NCBI GenBank assembly: GCA_964360965.1 | Contig: CAYHYM010000001.1 | Location: forward strand, 8,878 to 72,877 | DNA from: an uncultured Gammaproteobacteria bacterium | GTDB lineage: Bacteria > Patescibacteriota > Microgenomatia > Daviesbacterales > UBA10151 | Direction of reading: 5' to 3' | DNA: 64,000 nucleotides | Shown: positions 11,407 through 64,000 of the stretch, piece by piece | How the letters are laid out: each line of letters opens with the position of its first letter | Numbering within the stretch: position 1 is the stretch's first letter | The notes under the pieces: generated by a model | Seen by the model: the letters and a program-made list of their open reading frames with translations, nothing else | Database searches by the model: none | Told to the model about the DNA's origin: nothing | Program-made: the position numbers and the translations under genes

Positions 11407-11423
11407 CCACACCCGGTGTGTAC
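11407..11423. repeat. REP-like near-palindrome CCACACCCGGTGTGTAC 3' of the RAYT gene
   Basis: ACACC/GGTGT arms around CGG. The same core recurs at 12138-12151 and 12161-12183. Confidence 0.6.
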
Positions 11424-11441
11424 AAGGTAGACACATCGGGG

Positions 11442-12119
11442 TTATTCTGCAATAAGATGTTTTATTTGATCTAATTTCCTCTGATAATCCATCTGGTCAA
11501 ATGTAAATTTTTTAAACTGATTCAATGAACGAAAATAGGCCAATAAGAACTTTTTATCCACAATGATATTCAATTTTTGTTTACCGAGGTATTCTGAAAA
11601 AGAGCACCATGGATAATTTTCCAACTCTTCAGGCTTTTTAATGATATAAGCAGTTAGGGGATTAAGATGAATGTAACGAGCTACATGAACTAATTGCTCA
11701 TCAGTCTCAATTCTAACTGCCTTAAATCTTGATTGGAAAAGTGACCCATTTCTATCATTTTTAGTATTAAAATATTTTGCATAGCTATTTTGAAAGTTTC
11801 TTGTAAAAGTGGTTATTCCGCCACTATTTATCTCCTTAATTAAAAAATGAATGTGATTTGGCATTAAACAATAAGCTAAAACTTGTATCAATCTTTTGCC
11901 AGTTTGCTCTAAACTTTTTAAAAACTTCGTCTTTTGGTCTTCAGCTAATCGATTAAAATGAGAGTAACGTAAAGTTAGTTTTTCAAATGTGTAAAAATAG
12001 AGTGTTTGAAGTGCTCTCTGATAATCCCTTTCATTGATAAAGATTGGCAGACGTGCCACACTCCGGTTGAAAATATGATAGATTTCACCTTCAACAATCG
12101 GTACTTTGCGGTAGGGCAT
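11442..12119 (-). CDS. REP-associated tyrosine transposase (RAYT, IS200/IS605-like Y1 HuH transposase)
   Basis: HuH motif LMPNHIHFLIK. Catalytic Tyr region ARYIHLNPL...YPWCSFSEY. 225 aa; a paralog lies at 41180-41848. Confidence 0.8.
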   Translation of the reverse strand: MPYRKVPIVEGEIYHIFNRSVARLPIFINERDYQRALQTLYFYTFEKLTLRYSHFNRLAEDQKTKFLKSLEQTGKRLIQVLAYCLMPNHIHFLIKEINSGGITTFTRNFQNSYAKYFNTKNDRNGSLFQSRFKAVRIETDEQLVHVARYIHLNPLTAYIIKKPEELENYPWCSFSEYLGKQKLNIIVDKKFLLAYFRSLNQFKKFTFDQMDYQRKLDQIKHLIAE

Positions 12120-12137
12120 TATTCCAGATTACGCTGT

Positions 12138-12183
12138 ACACCCCGGGGTGTCAAGCTACCACACACCCGGTGTAGATATCTAC
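12138..12183. repeat. REP-like palindromes 5' of the RAYT gene (ACACCCCGGGGTGT perfect 14-bp palindrome; ACACACCCGGTGTAGATATCTAC)
   Basis: Perfect palindrome at 12138-12151. A second ACACC/GGTGT unit follows, with a GTAGATATCTAC palindrome. Confidence 0.65.
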
Positions 12184-12680: not shown

Positions 12681-13287
12681 AAATTTGATTTGAATAAGAG
12701 CCTCCAAAAGCTGCACACCAAATATCTGAAGCAGTAGACCTTAATGATGAATTGTATTTCCAGTTTTTAAGTCCGCATCTTTCAGAATCATTGGTATTTT
12801 CCAGCTGTGCTGTCAGGTCATAAGTTTGACCATCAGCAGTAACATTTCCATAAGTATAGGAATAATTTCCACCAACCCAAGGACCATTGGCATTATTGAT
12901 AGGGTCAATTGGTAGCCTGGGAGTAATACCACCATTGACTAAAGCAGGAATCCAACCCTCTCCTGTAGTACTGTAGACATAACAATTGGATCCGTAAGCA
13001 CAACTACCAGCAGTGGGATACTTACCAGCACCAGCACGATAAGCCTCCAAATAGGTATTGATTTTATTAAGATCAGCTTTTCTTTTAGCATCTCTGGCAT
13101 TTTTTTGAACACCTGAGTAGGCAGCTATACCTATCACAGAAAGAATACCAAGAATGGTAATAACAACCAGCAATTCAACCAGGGTGAAACCCTTCGACTC
13201 ACTATGCTCGCTCAGGGCAAGGCCACGTTTATCCTGAGCAAACCTGTACTGAGCGGAGTCGAAGTAGTCGAAGGAGGCAGATTTCAT
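12658..13287 (-). CDS. type IV pilin (PilA-like) with N-terminal extension derived from a palindromic repeat element
   Basis: SKGFTLVELLVVITILGILSVIGIAAYSGVQKNARDAKRKADL. The 32-aa leader MKSASFDYFDSAQYRFAQ... is encoded by the repeat at 13190-13274. Confidence 0.7.
   Translation of the reverse strand: MKSASFDYFDSAQYRFAQDKRGLALSEHSESKGFTLVELLVVITILGILSVIGIAAYSGVQKNARDAKRKADLNKINTYLEAYRAGAGKYPTAGSCAYGSNCYVYSTTGEGWIPALVNGGITPRLPIDPINNANGPWVGGNYSYTYGNVTADGQTYDLTAQLENTNDSERCGLKNWKYNSSLRSTASDIWCAAFGGSYSNQIYEASPDR
13190..13274. repeat. GTCGAAG/CTCAGTAC-family palindromic element (inverted CCTTCGACT ... AGTCGAAGG arms) embedded in-frame in the pilin 5' end
   Basis: Reverse complement matches 54391-54435 and 62450-62495 (GGTTCGAyTACTTCG...CTCAGTACAGGTAC). 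Confidence 0.6.
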
Positions 13288-41143: not shown

Positions 41144-41159
41144 GACACCTGGGGGGTGG
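41144..41159. repeat. REP-like element GACACCTGGGGGGTGG 3' of RAYT-2 (inverted partner at 41889-41904)
   Basis: The 14-mer ACACCTGGGGGGTG occurs here and as a reverse complement at 41889-41904. The pair brackets only the RAYT gene. Confidence 0.65.
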
Positions 41160-41179
41160 ATTAGGCAGGCATGTAGGGA

Positions 41180-41848
41180 TTATTCCAAAATAAGATGTTC
41201 AATCAGTTTTAATTTTCTTTGATAGTCAGCTTGATCAAATACAAAATGTTTATATTTTTCCCTGCTTCCAAACATATCCAACACTAAATTTGGTTCTAAA
41301 AAACCATCATTACCAGTAAGATAATTTGAAAAGGATGACCACGGATACTTTTCTAATTCACCAACAGTTCTAACTATAAAATTTGTATAAGGATTTAGGT
41401 GTATATATCTTGAAACATGAATAAACTGTTCATCAGTCTCTATCCTCTTGGCTTTAAATTGATCTAAAAATAAGGAGCCGTCCCGTTCATTCCTGGTATT
41501 ATGATAACGAGTATAACTATTTTGGAAATTACCTATAAATTTTGAAATACCATCCTCCATTTTCTGCTTTAACAAGAAATGAAAATGATTGGGCATTAAA
41601 CAAAAACAAATAATATCAACTAATTTTTCTGCCTGGTTCGTAATTTTGGTAATCTCTTTTTGTTTATCTTGTTCCAACTCCAAAAATTTAGATAATCTAA
41701 TAGGTGGGCTTGAAACTCTATAAAATTCAATTGCCAAAATTGCCCTTTGGTATTCTTTTTTTGTGGTAAAGGTGGGTTGCTTATTTATACCTCTGTTGTA
41801 AACATGGTAGATCTCATCCGTTACAAGTGGAATTTTTCTACCTGGCAT
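41180..41848 (-). CDS. REP-associated tyrosine transposase (RAYT) paralog
   Basis: HuH motif LMPNHFHFLLK. Tyr region SRYIHLNPYTNFIV...YPWSSFSNY. About 50% identical to the 11442 copy. Confidence 0.8.
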   Translation of the reverse strand: MPGRKIPLVTDEIYHVYNRGINKQPTFTTKKEYQRAILAIEFYRVSSPPIRLSKFLELEQDKQKEITKITNQAEKLVDIICFCLMPNHFHFLLKQKMEDGISKFIGNFQNSYTRYHNTRNERDGSLFLDQFKAKRIETDEQFIHVSRYIHLNPYTNFIVRTVGELEKYPWSSFSNYLTGNDGFLEPNLVLDMFGSREKYKHFVFDQADYQRKLKLIEHLILE

Positions 41849-41870: not shown

Positions 41871-41930
41871 CCCTGGGTGTCAACCTGAGACACCCCCCAG
41901 GTGTTTATAGGTGTTTATACAGGTGTTTAT
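41871..41930. repeat. REP-like hairpin (GGGTGTC aacctga GACACCC) plus three tandem AGGTGTTTAT decamers 5' of RAYT-2
   Basis: Seen directly: CCCTGGGTGTCAACCTGAGACACCCCCCAGGTGTTTATAGGTGTTTATACAGGTGTTTAT. Confidence 0.7.
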
Positions 41931-42518
41931 ATCCACTGAATGGACACTCTCCGGATTCCCTATAACCATTTTGATATCGGCAGGTAGTTCAATCTCATGA
42001 TGGTAAAATCCATCAACCACGCTTTTACCAATTTTCATACTAATAGGAGTTTTATAGTCTCTAATAATGGGAACCCCCACGTTGTCTCCTTCTCTAAAAA
42101 AGCTTCTCCACTCTGGTTTACCGACGTCAGCAGGATAAAAATATTTGAACCTTGCCTTAGCTGCTTCAACATCTACCTGACAATCTGAATCAAAAGTCAT
42201 ACCATTAACACTTACTCTAAGTTTTAATTCAGATAAACACTGGGTTAACTGCATAAACCATGGTTCAGACACTACAGCTTTTAAATTTATATCAGGCCAA
42301 TCCCAACCGTCTTTATTGTGATCTTCTCCAAATCTTACTGATATCAATGCCTGTCTTGAAGGTAACTCCACCTGTCTCACTTCTCCGTTAAATTCCCCGT
42401 CAAAAATATACTTTTTAAGTTGAAAAGCATGAACAACAGAATCACCTGACTGGTAAACTAATCTTCCATTAGTAAAAGGTTCAAATTGTTGATCAAATTT
42501 TCTAGTTTCAATATCCAT
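41880..42518 (-). CDS. hypothetical protein
   Basis: 212-aa ORF. No recognisable domain. Confidence 0.35.
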   Translation of the reverse strand: MDIETRKFDQQFEPFTNGRLVYQSGDSVVHAFQLKKYIFDGEFNGEVRQVELPSRQALISVRFGEDHNKDGWDWPDINLKAVVSEPWFMQLTQCLSELKLRVSVNGMTFDSDCQVDVEAAKARFKYFYPADVGKPEWRSFFREGDNVGVPIIRDYKTPISMKIGKSVVDGFYHHEIELPADIKMVIGNPESVHSVDINTCINTYKHLGGVSG

Positions 42519-52820: not shown

Positions 52821-53264
52821 ATGACCGCTACAGCACATGCTTTAGTGGGAGGAGCAATTGCCGCATCTATTTCTAATCCCGCTGTTGCCCTTCCCTTAGC
52901 TTTCATCTCCCACCCCATTTTGGACATGATTCCTCACTGGGATCTAGGTGTAGGCTGGAGAAAGAAAAATAAAGTAACTCTATTTTTGGAATCTGTCTTG
53001 GATTTAATAATTGGAATAATTTTGGCCTATTTTATATTTGGTAAAAATGTTGATCCAATCTATTTTTTAGCTTGTATATTCTTTTCTGAAGTTTGGGATA
53101 TCCTGATGATGCCATACCTTCTTTTTGGCTGGAAGAACCCACCTTTCTCAACAACCTACAAATGGCAGCATAAAATTCAAACCAATATTAAACTTCCCTG
53201 GGGAATCTTAACTCAAGCAATCACCGTGGGAGGGGTGGTTTTTGCTTTAAGATTTGTCCACTAA
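52821..53264 (+). CDS. hypothetical membrane protein
   Basis: Four hydrophobic helices. No family assignable. Confidence 0.3.
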   Translation: MTATAHALVGGAIAASISNPAVALPLAFISHPILDMIPHWDLGVGWRKKNKVTLFLESVLDLIIGIILAYFIFGKNVDPIYFLACIFFSEVWDILMMPYLLFGWKNPPFSTTYKWQHKIQTNIKLPWGILTQAITVGGVVFALRFVH

Positions 53265-53832
53265 ACCTTTCTACATATTCCCCTGTTCTCGTGTCTATTT
53301 TTACTTTTTCCCCAACCTTAATAAACATGGGAACTTTGACCATCAGTCCATTATCCATGATGGCATCTTTGAAGACATTGGAAACTGTATTTCCCTTCTC
53401 CCCTGGTCCTGTTTCTGCTATTTCATATACCAGGCTCATGGGTAATTCCATTCCCAGAGCCTCTCCTTCTGATATTATTAAAATCACCTCTAGTCCGTCT
53501 TTTAAGTACTTTATCTGCTCACCTAACGCTTGTCCACCTAATGAGAACTGTTCAAAAGATACAGGATCCATGAAGTTAAATCCGCCAGCTGGCGGATCCC
53601 CATCTCTGTACAAAAACTGGGCCTTTTTCTTTTCTACATCAGCTTCATCTACTCTAGCTCCGGTAATAAAGGAGTTTTCTAAAACAGCCCCTGTACGTAT
53701 ATTCCTGACATTAAGCTTAATATTCCCGGATCCCCGCCCGGTTTTCATATGCTCATAGGTTAAAACCAGGAAAATATCTTTTCCCTCTTTAAAAAACGTC
53801 CCATTCCTTAACTCATTTACATTTAAAGCCAT
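53221..53832 (-). CDS. efp: elongation factor P
   Basis: MALNVNELRNGTFFKEGKDIFLVLTYEHMKTGRGSGNIKLNVRNIRTG. Internal ATG start chosen. Confidence 0.9.
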   Translation of the reverse strand: MALNVNELRNGTFFKEGKDIFLVLTYEHMKTGRGSGNIKLNVRNIRTGAVLENSFITGARVDEADVEKKKAQFLYRDGDPPAGGFNFMDPVSFEQFSLGGQALGEQIKYLKDGLEVILIISEGEALGMELPMSLVYEIAETGPGEKGNTVSNVFKDAIMDNGLMVKVPMFIKVGEKVKIDTRTGEYVERFSGQILKQKPPLPR

Positions 53833-54128
53833 ACACCCTCCTGTCATCCTGAACCCGCCACAGGCGGGTGAAGGATCTAATCTTTGGATTTTAGCATAAA
53901 CTTCCTTCCTATGTCATCCCGACGAATGTCGGGATCCATAAATAATGTGTTTAGTTGGATTCTCCTCGAGTCTGAGCGACCTCGGAGTCGAAGACCTGCA
54001 TTTGCAGGAATGACAGAAGAAAATCCTTAATTCCCTCTCTATCTCTTTTTAACCATTCCACATTGGAATGAACAAGTTTTCTCTTTCTTACCACGATCGG
54101 AGGATATTTGGTATAATTATTTTTTAGG

Positions 54129-54174
54129 CCGAGGTGTTTACACCGAGCTTGCCGAGGTGTTTACACCGAGCTTG
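54129..54174 (+). repeat. two tandem 23-bp copies of GCCGAGGTGTTTACACCGAGCTT immediately 5' of tRNA-Leu, duplicating the tRNA 5' nine bases
   Basis: Units at 54129-54151 and 54152-54174, with the tRNA beginning GCCGAGGTG at 54175. Each unit holds a GGTGT-TT-ACACC inverted repeat. Confidence 0.75.
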
Positions 54175-54257
54175 CCGAGGTGCTGGAATGGTAGACAGGC
54201 CAGTCTCAAAAACTGGTGATGGCAACATCATGAGGGTTCGACTCCCTCCCTCGGTAC
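54175..54257 (+). tRNA. tRNA-Leu (anticodon CAA), class II with long variable arm, no encoded CCA
   Basis: Hand-folded. Acceptor GCCGAGG/CCTCGGT, D arm CTGG-AATGGTAGA-CAG, anticodon stem CCAGT/ACTGG with loop CTCAAAA, 15-nt variable arm, T arm GAGGG-TTCGACT-CCCTC. Close to E. coli tRNA-Leu in architecture. Confidence 0.85.
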
Positions 54258-54382
54258 TCTGTGCGACTATATGACTTCGCTCGAACATATTTTACCAAAA
54301 ATTACTAACGCATTACTAGTCGGCGTCAACCTCAATCTCGTTTCCTACCTCATTACAAACTCCTACCTCAATCTTTCCATAC

Positions 54383-54500
54383 TTCGACTGGTTCGACTAC
54401 TTCGGTTACACTCAGTACAGGTACGCTCACCATAAATTCACTCACCACAAGTTCACTCAGGACAAGTCACTATCGCTTCCATGCTCAGGCTCGCACTTGT
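54383..54500. repeat. GTCGAAG/CTCAGTAC-family element downstream of tRNA-Leu
   Basis: TTCGACTGGTTCGACTACTTCGGTTACACTCAGTACAGGTACGCTCACCA is about 87% identical to 62450-62495, and the reverse complement matches 13235-13274. Confidence 0.55.
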
Positions 54501-56265: not shown

Positions 56266-56562
56266 ATGAACAGCACAATTTTACAAATCCCTGTTAATAA
56301 AAACCTTCGTGACCAAGCTGCTAGCAGAGCAGAAAGGATGGGTTTTTCTTCCCTTCAGGAGGTAGTCAGATTATTCTTAAATAAAATAGCCTTGGGAGAA
56401 ATTGATGTCAGCTTTGAGCCAACTGTGCAGTTATCCCCTAAGGCAATTAAAAGATATAACAAGATGATAGATGAGATTGAAGCTGGTAAAAATATTACTG
56501 GTCCCTTTACAGATGTAGGTGAAATGATGAAATATCTCCATGAAGGTAAAATTCCACGCTAA
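56266..56562 (+). CDS. RelB/DinJ-like antitoxin
   Basis: Small acidic protein with an RHH-like N-terminus. 3' end overlaps the toxin gene by 23 nt. Confidence 0.55.
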   Translation: MNSTILQIPVNKNLRDQAASRAERMGFSSLQEVVRLFLNKIALGEIDVSFEPTVQLSPKAIKRYNKMIDEIEAGKNITGPFTDVGEMMKYLHEGKIPR

Positions 56563-56806
56563 GTTTATTAAAAATTACCGAAAAAGAATTCTCAGTAATA
56601 AAAAACTTGATAATCAGGTCAAAATAAAAATTGAACAGTTTAAAATTAATCCTAATAATCCTATCTTAAAAGATCATAATTTAACTGGGACAAAGAAGGG
56701 ATTAAAAGCATTTTCACTTACTGGAGATATCAGAATAATTTATAGACCTTCTTCCGACAATGAAGTAGTTTTTATGGATATTGGATCACATAATCAAGTG
56801 TATTAA
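56540..56806 (+). CDS. RelE/ParE-family toxin (mRNA interferase)
   Basis: 88 aa: ...LKDHNLTGTKKGLKAFSLTGDIRIIYRPSSDNEVVFMDIGSHNQVY matches the RelE/YoeB family. Confidence 0.7.
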   Translation: MKVKFHAKFIKNYRKRILSNKKLDNQVKIKIEQFKINPNNPILKDHNLTGTKKGLKAFSLTGDIRIIYRPSSDNEVVFMDIGSHNQVY

Positions 56807-56811
56807 ATAAA

Positions 56812-57012
56812 TTATTTACTCCAGATTCCTCTTTTATTTTTCTTTGCTTCATCTTGGGCTACAAGTAATTCTTTCTGATATATCCAGGGTTTTTTGTGTC
56901 CCGCACCATACGGTACAGGACTATTTTGGTAGATAAGGGAGAAAGAAGTATTTTTAACATGAGGTAGGATATCTTCAAGTAAATTCTCTGAAACTGTAAT
57001 TAATTTAGACAT
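56812..57012 (-). pseudogene. chimeric remnant: repeated MSKLITVSENLLEDILPHVK module fused to a staphylococcal-nuclease-like C-terminal tail
   Basis: C-terminus KPWIYQKELLVAQDEAKKNKRGIWS resembles the end of SNase/thermonuclease. Too short for a functional SNase domain. Confidence 0.35.
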
Positions 57013-57687: not shown

Positions 57688-58890
57688 ATGGCCACTGAAC
57701 AAGGAATAATTAATTCTGGACAGGATTTTTTTAATTCACTTAGACTACGACATATTTATGGGGATCTGAATACAATTGAGGCTAAGATTAACAAGCGAAG
57801 CTTCTTGAGGTTAACTAATCCTGACCCAGACATTGTAGCAGCTGAAGCGGAAAGGATAATTCAAGCTGGACCACTCAGAGGCATTTCCTTTATTGAAGCA
57901 AATAAACAAGGTTACTTTGTTTATGAAGGTGCACCAGTTCCACTTGCTTGGTGGGCACCACATAGGTTCGAAAGACAGTTTCTTACCAGATTAGCTCATT
58001 CACTCACTGGTGAATTTCCTTTTATACTAGATGTTGCATGCGGAACTGGATTACTTGCTAAATTACTAGCAGCAGAAACAGATGCAAAAGTAGTTGGTTT
58101 AGATCCAGGAGAAATATTTAATGAGATGTCTGGTATTGATCGTTTACCAGATACTCCTGGCAATATATTGCTTAGAAAGAAAGATGTTTGGAAAGCAGTA
58201 AATACCTATGGTCCAAAGTATCCTTATCAATTAAACCGAGAAAGAAGAGAATTGTTAAAAAGACTAAAAAGGGAACCTGAAAAAGTATCTATTTTCTTAT
58301 CTCCAGAGTATCCTTACTCATCTTCTGCTAAAGAAGGGTTCAATCGACCCAATGAAGGAGTTGAGGAATTATCTGATGAAGTGAAAAGAATCCAGGAAAT
58401 AGCACCTCTTTACAAGGCTCCTTCCCCCATAGATTTAGTAATTTGCAGTTTTATGCCAGTTGGAGCTGATTTAACAGTACCTATCAGAGATGGCATTTAT
58501 CCTAAGGGTATTGTTTATGTTAGACAAATGCGTGGTGGGACCGGAACAGGTGATTATTTCTTATATGAATATCTAAATCCTGAAAGTTCTAAAAGATTAA
58601 GATACTCTCAGATAAGTTTTAATCCAGGTGAACATTACCAAGTAGTTGCCAGATGGCCAACCCCAAGTCAAAATAATTGGCATGCTAGTGAAACTAATAA
58701 ACTGCAAAGTCCTATGACTGCAGAAGTTGTGGTCCAACTGAGAAAGGATGTTGTTTTAGCCAAGACAGATAGGATCACTTGTCCAAGTTACCCTTGGGAT
58801 CAGGATATAGAAGATTTTCTTGGACAAGTATTGAGGAAGGAACTCTTTTTTGCTGGTATTGAACAAGCTACAAATTCCTTATTTGCTTAA
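57688..58890 (+). CDS. hypothetical protein with class I SAM-methyltransferase-like motif
   Basis: Motif I ILDVACGTGLLAKLLA followed by acidic VVGLDPGE. Confidence 0.45.
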   Translation: MATEQGIINSGQDFFNSLRLRHIYGDLNTIEAKINKRSFLRLTNPDPDIVAAEAERIIQAGPLRGISFIEANKQGYFVYEGAPVPLAWWAPHRFERQFLTRLAHSLTGEFPFILDVACGTGLLAKLLAAETDAKVVGLDPGEIFNEMSGIDRLPDTPGNILLRKKDVWKAVNTYGPKYPYQLNRERRELLKRLKREPEKVSIFLSPEYPYSSSAKEGFNRPNEGVEELSDEVKRIQEIAPLYKAPSPIDLVICSFMPVGADLTVPIRDGIYPKGIVYVRQMRGGTGTGDYFLYEYLNPESSKRLRYSQISFNPGEHYQVVARWPTPSQNNWHASETNKLQSPMTAEVVVQLRKDVVLAKTDRITCPSYPWDQDIEDFLGQVLRKELFFAGIEQATNSLFA

Positions 58891-58899
58891 TATTCACAA

Positions 58900-58949
58900 C
58901 TTCCACCCTTCGATACTTCGACAAGCTCAGTACTCAGGGTAAACCTGAA
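58900..58949. repeat. 50-bp deletion derivative of the 108-bp palindromic element at 60725-60832, 10 nt after a stop codon
   Basis: CTTCCACCCTTCGATACTTCGACAAG + CTCAGTACTCAGGGTAAACCTGAA; identical to the ends of the 60725 copy. Confidence 0.65.
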
Positions 58950-58977
58950 TTAGCTATTTTTGTGCTAGAATTGCTTT

Positions 58978-59349
58978 ATGGCTAAGAAAGTCATAAGCTA
59001 TGACCTTTTATTTGAAGTCAAAGATACTCTTGGTAGAAGGATACACACCACAAAAGATTACTGGCAGAAGATTAAAACCTTAAAGCATCGAGAATTAAAA
59101 TATGGTATTAATGAAGTTAAGACTACACTGACAAAACCAGATGAGATAAGAAGAAGTGTGACTGATTCTACTATTTTACTCTATGCACAAAGACAGCAAA
59201 ATTATGATATACTTATTGTGGCAGTTAAGGTTTTAAATGGTGAGGGTTTCTTAGTGACAGTTTATCAGACTAAGGATTATAAAAAGAAAGGAGAACTTAT
59301 ATGGCCAAAGCAAAAACAGAGGCTCGCCCTGAGCGAAGCCGAAGGGTAA
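58978..59349 (+). CDS. DUF4258-like putative toxin
   Basis: About 120 aa: HTTKDYWQKIKTLKHRELKY...ILLYAQRQQNYDILIVAVKV. Paired with a DUF2283-like gene. Confidence 0.45.
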   Translation: MAKKVISYDLLFEVKDTLGRRIHTTKDYWQKIKTLKHRELKYGINEVKTTLTKPDEIRRSVTDSTILLYAQRQQNYDILIVAVKVLNGEGFLVTVYQTKDYKKKGELIWPKQKQRLALSEAEG

Positions 59350-59588
59350 AAATTTATCTTGATCCTGTAGCAAATACCTTTAATATTTGGTGGGATGATC
59401 CTAAAAAGGCTTATTCCTCTGAAGAGGTAGATTCTCCAAACAGGAATGACGTAATTATTAAAGATAAACAAGGCAAACCAATTAGTTTGGAAGTGATTGG
59501 TATATTTCCAAGTGAACTAAATGTGGCAGAGAAGCTTAAAAGGACAATTGGAACTCCCAAAGAACCACTGCTTCTTCAATCAATTTAA
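59301..59588 (+). CDS. DUF2283-like small protein (putative cognate antitoxin)
   Basis: VKIYLDPVANTFNIWWDD...LEVIGIF resembles DUF2283. Overlaps the upstream gene. Confidence 0.5.
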   Translation: MAKAKTEARPERSRRVKIYLDPVANTFNIWWDDPKKAYSSEEVDSPNRNDVIIKDKQGKPISLEVIGIFPSELNVAEKLKRTIGTPKEPLLLQSI

Positions 59589-59746
59589 TCCTTAATCTTT
59601 TTCTCTAAAGGTGTTCCTTTAACATGAGGCAGGATATCTTTTAATAGATTCTCTGAGACTGTAATTAATTTGGGCATGACACAATTTTAGTCTATTAGAT
59701 CTGGACAAAATGATAAAGTTGTGTAAAATAAACTAAAGTTTAATTT

Positions 59747-60715
59747 ATGACTCAAGAAACAAGAGCAGCTTTACTATTCCCAGGTCAAGGATTACCTTCT
59801 AAAGATATTGTTGCATGTTATCAAAGACTCAATAGTATTGATTCTACTCATATACAACAAAGATTAGGACGAGCCCAAGATGCAATAAATAAAGTTCATG
59901 GAAGTGCTGCTTTTGATATTAATATTGCTTTGCAGGATGAAAAATCTCCAAGCTTTACTCAGACTTCTTTTGTACAACCTGTGGTTTATACCCTTAGCGT
60001 CCTTACCTCTGAAATTACTGATGCTCACGGTATTGCCAGAATTGCTCCCAGTTTTGTGGCTGGGCATAGTTTAGGTGAGTACTCTGCTCTAACCAGGGCC
60101 AAAGTCTTTGATTTTGAACAAGGAGTTGATCTTGTTACATACCGAGGTTTGGTAATGGAAGAGGCATGTCAGAAAACCAAAAGCGTTTTACTTAGAATCA
60201 GTGGGTTAGCAGAAGATAGAGTAAGGGAACTTTGTCAACCAGGAGGCACAAGAATTGCTGAAGTTGCTTTGATCAATGCTCCAACATTGATAGTGGTAGG
60301 TTGTGCAGCAGAAGCTGCAACTGAAGTAGATAGATTAGCCAAAGAAGCTGGAGCTAGAGGTGCAACTGATTTAGGAACAGCTGGGGCTTTTCATACCACA
60401 TTTATGGAAGAAGCAGCTGACAAATTGGATAAAAAACTATTTGAATATGACTTTAAACACCCAGAAATTCCAGTTGTAACTAATTTTACAGGAAAACCTA
60501 TATATCATAGTATGCAAGCACAAGATCATCTAATTCAAGGCATGATCAATCCAGTTCAGTGGGCTAAGGTATTAGAAACTTTACAGACATCAGGTGTCAC
60601 GGTTTTTGCTGAAGTTGGCCCTGGAACTTCACTGGCTGCTTTAAATAGGATTAACAATATTCCTGAGGATAGAACAATAAATGTTCTTAACTGGTTTGAA
60701 CCACGAGGTACTTAA
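59747..60715 (+). CDS. fabD: malonyl CoA-acyl carrier protein transacylase
   Basis: FPGQG, active-site GHSLGEYSALT, conserved R (TYRGL) and GAFHTTFMEEAADKL all match FabD. Confidence 0.8.
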   Translation: MTQETRAALLFPGQGLPSKDIVACYQRLNSIDSTHIQQRLGRAQDAINKVHGSAAFDINIALQDEKSPSFTQTSFVQPVVYTLSVLTSEITDAHGIARIAPSFVAGHSLGEYSALTRAKVFDFEQGVDLVTYRGLVMEEACQKTKSVLLRISGLAEDRVRELCQPGGTRIAEVALINAPTLIVVGCAAEAATEVDRLAKEAGARGATDLGTAGAFHTTFMEEAADKLDKKLFEYDFKHPEIPVVTNFTGKPIYHSMQAQDHLIQGMINPVQWAKVLETLQTSGVTVFAEVGPGTSLAALNRINNIPEDRTINVLNWFEPRGT

Positions 60716-60724
60716 TATGTACAG

Positions 60725-60832
60725 CTTCCACCCTTCGATACTTCGACAAGACTTCGACGGTGAGTCTTTCGACCCTGAGCTCAAGACCGAAGGGCTCAGT
60801 CGAACCGCTCAGTACTCAGGGTAAACCTGAAG
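60725..60832. repeat. 108-bp composite palindromic element (GTCGAAG/CTCAGTAC family) 10 nt after the fabD stop
   Basis: Internal inverted pairs TTCGACCCTGAGC/GCTCAGTCGAA and TCTTTCGACC/GACCGAAGGG. The ends are identical to the 58900 copy. Confidence 0.7.
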
Positions 60833-60979
60833 CTGTTATTAAAAAGAGATTAGAACCTACTTCATAATAAGCTGCTTCATTTCCTCCATCAGAATATGCT
60901 TTAGAGCCTAAAAATTTAAGTAGTTTGATATACAAAATATACCTTGTATTTTAACAATTAGGATAATAAGATAGATACC

Positions 60980-61350: not shown

Positions 61351-62661
61351 TCAGTTGTGTTCAATATATGCTTTGTAGCCAACTAGCTTTTTGTTATCCC
61401 CAGAGCCAGAGTAGATATTTTTAACTCCGAAGGTTAAAAAGAGATCATCTTTGGAATAGGTAATGGTAGTACCAGTATTATCTTGGGAATTTAAAGTCTC
61501 TTTAAAGTTAGAATTGGTAAGTTGATTTGTATAGTAATCCAAAAAGGCTTGAGGAATTGATAATAATTGTTCAGATTCCAGATAAATACCTTCCTCCTCA
61601 ATTCTTCTTTTGCCTGAAGTAAAAAGTAATACCTTCTTTTGGGTTTTCTCCCATTTAATATCTGAGTAGAGTTTAGGGAGTCCCGTACCATTCGGTACAG
61701 GATTAAAAGTAGTAAGTCCGCCTGTTGGAGAAACAGGGCTAGGTGAAGGCGTAGTCTCAAAAGAGATAATCTCGGAGACCTCTATTAAATTAGGGGTGGG
61801 GGTTAAGTTGCCCTTAATTTGAACTTTCATGCCTTCAAAATCTGATAAGTTAACATTTTTTGATGCAGGGTTAAGGGTCCAGAGGGTTTTATTTTTATCA
61901 TTTGCTTGCAGGTAATATCCTGCTGAGGATTTTTGGATTATTCCCTGGGCAGTAATACCTCTGTGTAAGATGGGAGAGAAATTAGGGAATAGTTTACCAA
62001 GACCATAGTTTATACCTGATTTAAAACCTATCCCAAAACCTCCCAACCCCCCGCCCACTCCTGCCATGATAATAATTAAAGCTAAAACAGGGATTCTTAA
62101 GGTAATCATCTGTCTTTTGAGCAGTTTATTTAAAAAAGCTCTTAAATAAGTAACAGGATTAGTTAAGAAAAAACCAAACAAAGGAGGATCTTTTTTAGAA
62201 GAAGGTTGGGTATTTTGATTTATTTCTATAATGGGAGGAAGTCCCGCACCAGACGGTGCAGGATTAGGGGTATTTGGCTCGCCTGGTGGCGAAGCTGGGA
62301 CAGGAGGAGGGGTAGTCTGTTCAACCTTTTCTTCATGTTCAGGGATAAATCTTCCATGTTCATCTCTTTTTTGATGGGAAGCCACAGCAGAATGGACTAA
62401 GTTTTCTGAAACAGGATATTGAGGGTAATCAGGGATATTGGGAGAATTTGGTTCGATTACTTCGACTGTGCTCAGTACAGGTACACTCACCACAGGTGGG
62501 GTATTAGGGGCTGAAGGAGTAGGTGTTTGAGGAAAGGTTGGATTAACAGATTGTTGGTAGGGATTATCGGGATCTACAGGATTAGTATGAGGGTTAAAGT
62601 TTGACCCAAAAGAAGGAGGGGGATTATTTTGATCCGGAGGATCTTTAGGCAGATTATCCAT
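61351..62661 (-). CDS. hypothetical single-pass membrane protein with Pro-rich N-terminus
   Basis: Pro/Asn-rich N-terminal 170 aa, one TM, C-terminal domain. Carries an in-frame GTCGAAG-family repeat (62450-62499) encoding VPVLSTVEVIEPN. Confidence 0.4.
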   Translation of the reverse strand: MDNLPKDPPDQNNPPPSFGSNFNPHTNPVDPDNPYQQSVNPTFPQTPTPSAPNTPPVVSVPVLSTVEVIEPNSPNIPDYPQYPVSENLVHSAVASHQKRDEHGRFIPEHEEKVEQTTPPPVPASPPGEPNTPNPAPSGAGLPPIIEINQNTQPSSKKDPPLFGFFLTNPVTYLRAFLNKLLKRQMITLRIPVLALIIIMAGVGGGLGGFGIGFKSGINYGLGKLFPNFSPILHRGITAQGIIQKSSAGYYLQANDKNKTLWTLNPASKNVNLSDFEGMKVQIKGNLTPTPNLIEVSEIISFETTPSPSPVSPTGGLTTFNPVPNGTGLPKLYSDIKWEKTQKKVLLFTSGKRRIEEEGIYLESEQLLSIPQAFLDYYTNQLTNSNFKETLNSQDNTGTTITYSKDDLFLTFGVKNIYSGSGDNKKLVGYKAYIEHN

Positions 62662-62816: not shown

Positions 62817-63353
62817 TTAAGGCTTCATTATGAAAGGCTCAAGGTCTTCTCTTTTTAAAAGAGTAGATTCTGAACAATTTGCTACCATAGCCACACTTGG
62901 CATGTGTGAGAAACCTACATATTCAACAAACTTACCTTTTTCTTTGGCTTTCTTAACTGCCGGAAGAAGATCTGTATCTGATGAAACTAAAGTAATATGG
63001 TCGCAAAGATTTTCATAGGTTGCGACCAAGATATCTACGGCTATATTGACATCTACTCCTTTCTCGTGCATTTTGCCTTTTGATTTTAATAAATATCCCA
63101 ATGAGTATCTGAATTTGTGCTTTTTTAAGTGTGCTAATAGCTTTTGTTGTTTGTCAAACAACCCTTGAACATGTTTTGTGCGATTAGTTCTGACTGCTCC
63201 CACATAATATATACACTCTACTAATTCTCCTTTTTTAGAAAGACTTTTGGCAAAAGAAGAAAAATTAAACGCTAACTCATTATGAAGTTTTAGATCTTTA
63301 AGCTTGAAGTAGAAGTTACTACCATCAATTAACACTATATAACGTTGTTTAGT
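62817..63353 (-). CDS. NYN/LabA-like (PIN-fold) domain protein
   Basis: VLIDGSNFYF...GVDVNIAVDIL...LVSSDTDLLPAV matches the NYN domain. Confidence 0.65.
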   Translation of the reverse strand, partial: TKQRYIVLIDGSNFYFKLKDLKLHNELAFNFSSFAKSLSKKGELVECIYYVGAVRTNRTKHVQGLFDKQQKLLAHLKKHKFRYSLGYLLKSKGKMHEKGVDVNIAVDILVATYENLCDHITLVSSDTDLLPAVKKAKEKGKFVEYVGFSHMPSVAMVANCSESTLLKREDLEPFIMKP

Positions 63354-63569
63354 CATTGAGACCAATTATATAGCAAAGCTTGGGATAAAAAAATCCTGCA
63401 AATGCCTTGCGGCCTTGCAGGAGAGTTAAGTAATTGTATACTAACAAAATATTGGCAATATGTCAAGAAAAAATTGTAGGTGAGCAGTTGGCAGTGAAAA
63501 CTTTATAGCAGAAACAAGAAGATATGTAAAGCAAATTGCATATAGGCTCGTAAATCACTATAATTGCAG

Positions 63570-64000
63570 CATGGCTATTGAAAGATTTATTAAAGGCAGA
63601 ATTATTGGCCCATATTTTGAAAGAGTAAGAAGGCAAAGGGAACAATCACAGCAACAGGTACAAGTGGAAACTGCTCGCGGAGAAATTAATGCTCTTTTAG
63701 AGGATATATTTCCCAATGACACTGTTAAGGAATATACATTCAAAGATCCTGATATAGATTGGCCTCAACAGCTACCTTCATTAGTAAACTTACACCCAGA
63801 AATTACTGATAAGGATTTAATATCAATCTCAGTTGATAGAGAATACTTAGGATGTCCCACTCTGCATATTAGTATGTATTTTGGGTATTTTACAGATCCG
63901 CCTTATTATACAGTAACATCCTTGTTAGACAACAATCTTAGCAGTATTGAGGTTTATTCTGTAGCGACTACTGGAGATGCAATGACCCAAAGGTATAATA
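63570..64000 (+). CDS. hypothetical protein, 5' part (runs off window end)
   Basis: ATG at 63570. Frame is open through position 64000 (about 143 codons). Confidence 0.35.

Follow-up and report, generated by a model that had tools for sequence, protein, structure and literature searches.

Why should a transfer RNA gene be preceded by copies of its own beginning? The question is raised by a leucine tRNA gene in the 64,000-nucleotide stretch of DNA analysed here (the window), from an uncultured groundwater bacterium (Candidatus Daviesbacteria). The gene lies directly downstream of a short tandem array built in part from the first nine nucleotides of the gene. The initial annotation had hand-folded the gene as tRNA-Leu(CAA), and had offered two readings of the array: a scar of repeated integration or excision, or a REP-like insertion that had copied the 5' end of the tRNA.

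The identity of the gene is the simplest point to settle. ARAGORN finds a single tRNA in the window, a tRNA-Leu with anticodon CAA at 54174-54257 on the plus strand, and Rfam agrees, with a full-length match of RF00005 to 54174-54256 (55.1 bits against a gathering score of 29, E = 1.9e-10, model positions 1-71). It is a type II tRNA with a long variable arm (stem-loop GAUGGCAACAUC) and, as seen in alignment and sequence, the anticodon loop CUCAAAA. The first pair of its acceptor stem is G1-U72, which is also present in one relative (L003), the discriminator is A73 (the A at 54256), and the terminal CCA is not encoded. A score above the gathering threshold, a long variable arm, A73 and the CAA anticodon together identify a leucine type II member of the family, and the minimum-energy fold is the cloverleaf (z = -3.3). 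The earlier call of the gene therefore stands.

The array in front of it occupies 54128-54182 and is the highest-scoring tandem repeat of the window (Tandem Repeats Finder: period 23, 2.4 copies, 100% matches, score 110). Its layout is M-X-M-X-M, where M is the 9-bp sequence GCCGAGGTG, identical to nucleotides 1-9 of the tRNA, and X is the 14-bp sequence TTTACACCGAGCTT. One M and one X make up the 23-mer GCCGAGGTGTTTACACCGAGCTT, which forms unit 1 at 54128-54150 and, with the same sequence, unit 2 at 54151-54173, both on the plus strand; the third M copy is the start of the tRNA itself. Each unit contains one palindrome GGTGTTTACACC (GGTGT-TT-ACACC), at 54133-54144 and 54156-54167, respectively. 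The edges of the array are sharp and lie exactly at M, and similarity does not extend into the flank on either side. The original description of two 23-bp tandem units, which prove 100% identical and share GCCGAGGTG with the start of the tRNA, was thus correct, and its placement of the array was near-exact, except that the array begins at 54128 rather than 54129.

Short-read assemblers can miscount tandem repeats, and an array of this kind might be suspected of being an assembly or sequencing artefact. However, it is base-for-base identical in two contigs (L018 and L019) from the replicate samples Hain_H51_01um_R1 and R2, which were assembled separately, so that it is not the artefact of a single assembly and can be regarded as real. 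With the same 55-bp array in the window and in two contigs of separate replicate assemblies, and with a length below that of a typical read (typical length assumed), an artefact is the least credible of all the explanations considered here. No copy-number variants of the array were seen among the three assemblies, all of which represent one population.

The array is also confined to one place. The 23-mer GCCGAGGTGTTTACACCGAGCTT has no other site in the window even when three mismatches are allowed, and none of 100 shuffled controls gave any match. The tandem unit was found nowhere in the rest of the window, in a 9-kb extension or in 22 related loci (~300 kb), and further copies of X or of GGTGTTTACACC beyond the array were sought and not found. 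Two sets of candidate matches were rejected. A match to the unit junction ACACCGAGCTTGCCGAGGTG in IMG/VR viral contigs (L001) is a chance one, located in an apparent coding stretch of a contig that is G+C-rich (by eye) and has no tRNA. Metagenome matches to the 34-nt core of the tRNA (L013-L015) have different acceptor stems and no units, and consequently provide no population data. A search of the literature did not turn up any account of tandem duplication of a tRNA 5' end within a leader.

The neighbourhood of the gene allows the locus to be compared with that of its relatives. On the side of the tRNA promoter, synteny is conserved over 45.6-53.8 kb, and the last gene of this block encodes EF-P (53221-53832, minus strand); it lies 326 bp away, on the opposite strand, and its product shares 75-87% identity with EF-P from genomes of Candidatus Daviesbacteria (Microgenomates, CPR). 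An exact look-up of this EF-P protein gave no record; the proteins of neighbouring genes led to the same population. A tRNA-Leu(CAA) gene is found near EF-P in 8 of 10 related loci, where the gene order is nucleotidyltransferase, two small genes, MBL-fold hydrolase, dnaB, tRNA-Leu, M1 aminopeptidase and EF-P. An upstream copy of the 5' end of tRNA-Leu(CAA) is absent in all eight relatives compared. The M1 aminopeptidase lies between tRNA-Leu and EF-P in eight relatives (L002-L005, L007, L008, L010 and L011), and is missing in the window and in L006; the 280-bp spacer left in the window (53848-54127) contains small palindromes, such as gtcatcccgacgaatgtcgggatc.

A TGnTATAAT box is located 9-19 nt upstream of tRNA-Leu(CAA) in 8/8 relatives. 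The window has a promoter-like site at 54088-54117 on the plus strand, comprising TTACCA, a spacing of 18 nt and a TG-extended TATAAT (10/12 matches, with TG, in a consensus scan). Its -10 box (TGgTATAAT) ends at 54117, 10 nt before the first repeat unit. Part of the promoter region, ccacgatcggaggatatttg, is common to the window and the relative L008, which indicates that the promoter is ancestral. The first M, 10 nt past the promoter box, stands where the tRNA starts in the relatives, so that the net change is 46 bp between promoter and tRNA. If the site functions as a promoter, as its resemblance to the consensus suggests, the predicted 5' leader would have grown from a few nucleotides to ~50 nt. 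The TTTACA of the units was also considered as an alternative -35 box and rejected, there being no -10 box at a suitable spacing, and the site at 54088-54117 is the only upstream promoter in the scan.

The other side of the gene is very different from that of the relatives. A lineage-specific accessory block begins at 54258, runs to the end of the window at 64000 and continues to ~66.8 kb; ten relatives have no homologue of it in their syntenic loci. The dnaB gene of relatives ends 5-700 bp from the tRNA, and none of their dnaB-side genes occurs anywhere in the 64-kb window. In a contig of the same population that is identical to the window from 61073 on (L020), the dnaB block appears at window-equivalent 67.5 kb, and ~12.5 kb of unshared genes therefore separate tRNA-Leu and dnaB here. 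At 35-39%, the GC content of the block is lower than that of the remaining window sequence (about 38-45%). The tRNA accordingly does stand at a boundary of accessory DNA, as claimed, and the comparison with related genomes, which do not share the downstream genes, leaves the island standing.

Genes of the block encode hypothetical proteins, a YafQ-like toxin pair, methyltransferase-like proteins, a FabD-like acyltransferase and an NYN-domain protein, as judged by Pfam; the last of these is located at 62817-63365 of the window. Weak Pfam hits resembling PBECR2 (E = 0.006) and DUF2283 (E = 0.004) fall on adjacent, overlapping open reading frames. The toxin–antitoxin-like pair consists of an unannotated 98-aa open reading frame overlapping a YafQ/ParE-like toxin, and the weak hits may represent a second pair; the two regions are 56266-56806 and 58978-59588. 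Several families of dispersed intergenic repeats (44-71 nt, 82-93% identical, with motifs such as TACTTCGAC and GCTCAGTACAGGTAC) cluster within the block and near it, at 54352-54471, 62449-62497, 13228-13272, 58886-58958, 60711-60840, 56942-57012 and 59607-59677.

Could the array then be a scar left by this block, through its integration or excision, or the footprint of an excised IS with a 9-bp target duplication? The tRNA does border the ~12.5-kb lineage-specific block, and a 9-bp direct repeat around a short insert looks like a target-site duplication. Furthermore, a lower-GC lineage-specific block starting 8 nt past a tRNA is reminiscent of tRNA-integrated islands. Such islands, however, are flanked by attL/attR repeats of the tRNA 3' end and carry an integrase, whereas the repeats here copy the 5' end of the tRNA, on the promoter side and away from the block. 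A second copy of the 23-nt tRNA 3' end is absent from the window with up to three mismatches allowed, and at the far end of the block, where such a direct repeat had been expected, a blastn-short search of the tRNA against the L020 extension gave only chance matches of 8-14 nt. No integrase, recombinase or transposase was recognised by Pfam among window open reading frames of at least 70 aa and the L020 gene calls (54.7-67.5 kb), a result that covers Pfam-recognisable enzymes, several open reading frames of the block having no Pfam hit at all.

What brackets the block instead is a 61-bp inverted repeat, found with blastn in the window and L020. Its left copy (54265-54325, plus strand) starts 8 nt past the tRNA, and its right copy (window-equivalent 66746-66806, L020:6432-6492, opposite strand, 93% identical) lies just before a 212-aa gene and dnaB; no target duplication is present at these repeats. 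The block is not a classical att-flanked island. As to an excised IS, X (TTTACACCGAGCTT) has no terminal inverted repeats, and its sole palindrome borrows bases from M. Three cores 14 bp apart are also not a product of site-specific recombination, by established att-site logic. The scar interpretation of the initial annotation is largely refuted by these observations, and we consider any version of it very improbable. Insertion of the block, on the opposite side of the tRNA, would not have involved the array.

The explanation that we favour, with about even confidence, is a duplication of the slippage type, young and lineage-specific, in the leader of a tRNA-Leu(CAA) gene that still works; its effect is probably neutral or slightly costly. 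M-X-M-X-M is what would result if a pair of 9-bp direct repeats gained one unit, either by slipped-strand mispairing or by unequal exchange, and the GGTG-TTTA-CACC hairpin that each unit can form may have aided the process. The outcome would be a body of the tRNA set 46 bases further from the conserved promoter. The layout, the absence from relatives, the reproducibility and the predicted folding were directly seen in this analysis. A duplication is supported by the perfect 2.4 copies, by edges that fall exactly at M, by the restriction to one locus and by the absence of the array from the eight relatives, while the 100% identity between the units indicates that the event was recent.

In its M-X-M-X-M layout, perfect identity, single locus and hairpin-containing unit, the array resembles microhomology-flanked tandem duplications, and it is a new instance of this known event. 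It is unlike them in that a tRNA gene, with its first 9 nt, supplies the microhomology, and in that the founding M-X-M is unaccounted for. A 9-nt copy of the tRNA start located 23 nt upstream is not a matter of chance (4^-9 per site), and slippage consequently requires an earlier founding event that produced M-X-M. A further point against plain slippage is that X is not arbitrary: it completes the GGTGT/ACACC palindrome and creates the 9-mer AGGTGTTTA, both of which are otherwise marks of the ends of the window's Y1 transposase genes. Slippage or unequal exchange is ranked first, at even odds of being right, and the addition of units by a Y1 enzyme second, as less probable.

Two Y1 (HUH) transposase genes are present in the window, both on the minus strand. 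Gene #1 is located at 11442-12119, within a region with flanking palindromes (11409-12173) that has ACACC/GGTGT at 11409-11419, 12138-12151 and 12163-12173, and its product is 48% identical to that of gene #2. Gene #2 (41180-41848) is RAYT-like, with an intact H-F-H motif and the RYIHLNP tyrosine. Indeed, alignment shows that both genes retain the HUH motif (NHIHF/NHFHF) and the catalytic tyrosine (RYIHLNP). They match Pfam Y1_Tnp with 38.1 and 36.6 bits, respectively, against a cut-off of 23. Their sole NCBIfam hit is NF047646, the REP-associated tyrosine transposase, with 58.4 and 50.8 bits for genes #1 and #2; since these scores are below the cut-off of 80, the genes are best described as RAYT-like rather than as confirmed members.

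Homologues of these Y1 genes are plentiful in Microgenomates (6925 hits at E <= 1e-20). The closest orthologues adjoin ruvC, a conserved position of the kind expected of a domesticated RAYT-like gene. A ruvC-DUF5656 neighbourhood is seen in L023 and L026, and ruvC alone, in a locus that is cut, in L033. The open reading frames adjoining gene #2 in the window resemble the orthologue neighbours in length (177 and 269 aa versus 177 and 260 aa).

The flanks of these genes are conserved as well. Gene #2 is bordered by an inverted-repeat module, CCCTGGGTGTCAACCTGAGACACCCCCCAGGTG, at 41871-41903 on the plus strand (within 41871-41931), with its inverted partner at 41146-41179, and a threefold tandem of (C)AGGTGTTTATA at 41898-41931 directly abuts this module. 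The inverted module CCCTAGGTGTCAAGCTGAGACACCCCCCAGGTG is found on both Y1 flanks and is conserved in seven orthologues (L023, L026, L027, L030, L033, L034 and L035); conservation ends right after AGGTG. The module is composed of GGTGT and ACACC boxes, with CC[C/G]AGGTG as its terminal box. A single Y1 gene, inverted palindromic repeats on its flanks and a conserved chromosomal position amount to the layout of a RAYT locus.

Of 19 module termini, 4 are directly adjoined by short tandem repeats, where the background rate is 1.8% (binomial P = 3e-4, calculated after the pattern had been noticed), and three of these four reiterate the terminal GGTG box. Other short tandem arrays near Y1 orthologues are TAGGTGT x3, CTAAAT x5 and GGTGGTAGGGG x2; they are located at L027:337-380, L035:513-542 and L035:1300-1321. 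Two relatives (L004:9447-9483 and L010:9920-9956) have orphan copies of the module (..CCCCCCAGGTG) immediately upstream of EF-P, with no full-length Y1 gene nearby within the fetched stretch.

Several details connect the leader unit with these repeat ends, all of them counted or calculated once the pattern was already in view. Short-range GGTGT..ACACC pairs occur five times in the window where 0.45 are expected, and ACACC..GGTGT pairs six times where 0.54 are expected; the leader and the two Y1 genes account for all of the pairs save two in unrelated sequence (29665 and 36514). The 9-mer AGGTGTTTA occurs in the window only in the leader units and in the threefold tandem that abuts the repeat end of gene #2, and the 11-mer AGGTGTTTATA of that tandem is also present in the flank of the orthologue L033. 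Another orthologue, L034, has CCGAGGTG as its terminal box, the same sequence as nucleotides 2-9 of the tRNA. Finally, when X is replaced by random 14-nt sequences, a palindrome of 5 bp or more and a 9-mer found also in the Y1 flanks arise together in 0.27% of trials (P = 0.0027).

These similarities suggest that a Y1 transposase might have built the units itself, one at a time, by an off-target single-strand nick after AGGTG followed by primer extension and strand transfer. On this view, the CC[C/G]AGGTG terminus would be mimicked by the tRNA-Leu 5' end, GCCGAGGTG, the end of a unit would form a CACC...GGTG hairpin like that of a repeat terminus, and the array would be a REP-like sequence caught at its first locus. 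Each strand of evidence in the preceding paragraphs can be enlisted: the excess of box pairs and their concentration at Y1 genes and leader, the restricted distribution of AGGTGTTTA, the conservation of CCCTAGGTGTCAAGCTGAGACACCCCCCAGGTG on both flanks of seven orthologues and the box of L034, the tandem repeats at termini, the intact catalytic residues of both window enzymes, and the improbability of a random X with both properties. In addition, a route to tandem units by nick, extension and strand transfer has already been proposed by Ton-Hoang et al. for TnpA-REP and the tandem amplification of REP/BIME (PMC3333891, Fig. 7B).

This evidence is nevertheless at the level of motifs and post hoc. 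AGGTG is part of the tRNA regardless, and hairpins by themselves could favour slippage at repeat ends and leader alike. The unit does not reproduce the module: they have in common the GGTGT/ACACC boxes, the box order and AGGTGTTTA, but do not align over the length of the module, and their box spacings differ (2 and 11 nt in the leader unit, 9 and 5 nt in the Y1 module). The eight relatives, which have related Y1 genes, show no tRNA-Leu array. Moreover, the published model needs two cleavage sites, so that the first X is not accounted for in this way either. The specific proposal that the tRNA-Leu 5' end is a natural mimic of the Y1 terminal box, and that off-target nick-and-join built hairpin-bearing units head-to-tail, is rather unlikely.

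Similar considerations apply to the REP-like reading put forward initially. Known REP/BIME sequences with their RAYT (TnpA-REP) and the Y1 'TIRtrons' flanked by terminal inverted repeats (Ton-Hoang 2012, PMC3333891; Di Nocera 2013, PMC3733652; Corneloup 2021, PMC8266576) share with the present case a short, extragenic palindromic unit and, here, boxes in common with the flanks of syntenic Y1 genes. In contrast to the tens to hundreds of REP loci, and to the many dispersed copies by which REPs are recognised, the unit is found at one locus in the window, the 9-kb extension and the 22 loci. Direct reading of GCCGAGGTGTTTACACCGAGCTT reveals neither a GTAG or CGTC tag nor its complement, a tag at one end that defines most REPs (PMC3733652). 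The units are arranged head-to-tail instead of in alternating orientation, they incorporate a tRNA 5' end, and the Y1 proteins of the window fall under the RAYT cut-off. A lone unit is predicted to fold at -6.2 kcal/mol (a 4-bp stem plus two outer pairs, z = -2.0), which is much weaker than typical REPs, whose stable stem-loops measure 20-40 nt. The shared boxes and 9-mer thus speak for a relationship with the Y1 inverted repeats, while the single locus, the missing tag and the lack of copying from those repeats speak against it, and the REP-like idea is plausible but unproven. One rejected candidate also belongs here: derivation of X from the tRNA 3' end, or by snap-back copying of M, is unconvincing, with the 6-mer ACCGAG as the sole match.

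Whichever way the units arose, can the tRNA still be made? Transcription would start a few bases before unit 1, and the resulting leader of ~50 nt is predicted to fold on itself, leaving the nearest copy of GCCGAGG to form the acceptor stem. The predicted fold of such a transcript (54124-54262) has the native cloverleaf together with pairing between the units (-54.1 kcal/mol, z = -2.8), with unit 1 pairing with unit 2 at -17.3 kcal/mol. In the predicted ensemble, the 3' strand of the acceptor pairs with the tRNA-proximal GCCGAGG with a probability of 0.91-0.995 (the native acceptor stem is kept in >99% of the ensemble), and with the two decoy copies of GCCGAGG with probabilities of 0.004 and 0.0006. 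Forcing the decoy pairings is predicted to cost 3.5 and 5.0 kcal/mol. From this modelling we infer that the tRNA is still produced despite the longer leader, and RNase P would remove the leader to give a normal tRNA.

The same folding raises the possibility that the leader is functional, as a decoy-bearing structure that slows or regulates RNase P or the supply of tRNA-Leu(CAA), or that its palindromes are an operator. In the minimum-energy fold, there is direct stacking of the leader hairpin onto the acceptor stem, and A73 is paired with base -1. Inhibition of bacterial RNase P by leader structure, in a synthetic riboswitch (PMC7897497), and by pairing of the leader with the 3' end (3'RCCA; PMC9433436) is known, and by analogy a hairpin that abuts the acceptor stem could slow the enzyme here. 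The two GGTGT-TT-ACACC palindromes are also operator-like, being 23 bp apart (~two helical turns) just past the putative transcription start. Unlike the leaders of those reports, the present array is a natural one that is unconserved and has no ligand, and the likeness is one of mechanistic analogy only. The array is absent from 8/8 relatives, the perfect identity of its units favours youth over maintained function, and no Rfam family besides tRNA matches and no candidate regulator was found. A regulatory role is thus improbable, and under the favoured slippage account the array would probably be neutral or slightly costly.

What the locus means depends on which of the two leading accounts is correct. 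If plain slippage produced the array, it is an ordinary young microduplication, from which two practical points can be taken: a repeated tRNA 5' end does not count as evidence of integration, and a leader of 50 nt with decoy copies can be tolerated by a tRNA. Of greater use, as a by-product, is a Y1 family with conserved double-palindromic inverted repeats in CPR, the ends of which attract tandem repeats (P = 3e-4, post hoc as noted above). If, on the other hand, the array were a Y1 product, repeat end and tRNA leader would form a concrete substrate pair for the origin and amplification of REP-type repeats, which are still unresolved (PMC3333891, PMC8266576). It would show a REP-like repeat at the moment of its origin, still at the first locus, in a bacterium of the candidate phyla radiation, and would provide in-genome evidence for the Y1 model of tandem amplification.

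A different arrangement of tRNA-Leu sequence was encountered in an unrelated metagenome contig, represented by L013 and L015 (JGI Ga0075620_115 and Ga0075764_101). At ~L015:2940-3330, an intact tRNA-Leu(CAA) lies between tRNA-Leu-like pieces: a 5' piece, GCCGAGGTGGCGGAAC, ~70 nt upstream, and a matching 3' piece, ..CCCTCCCTCGGCAC, ~200 nt downstream, with a further CTCAAAA loop between them. ARAGORN and Rfam call the inner tRNA only, as one intact gene, and the surrounding pieces may represent a disrupted or nested tRNA-Leu gene.
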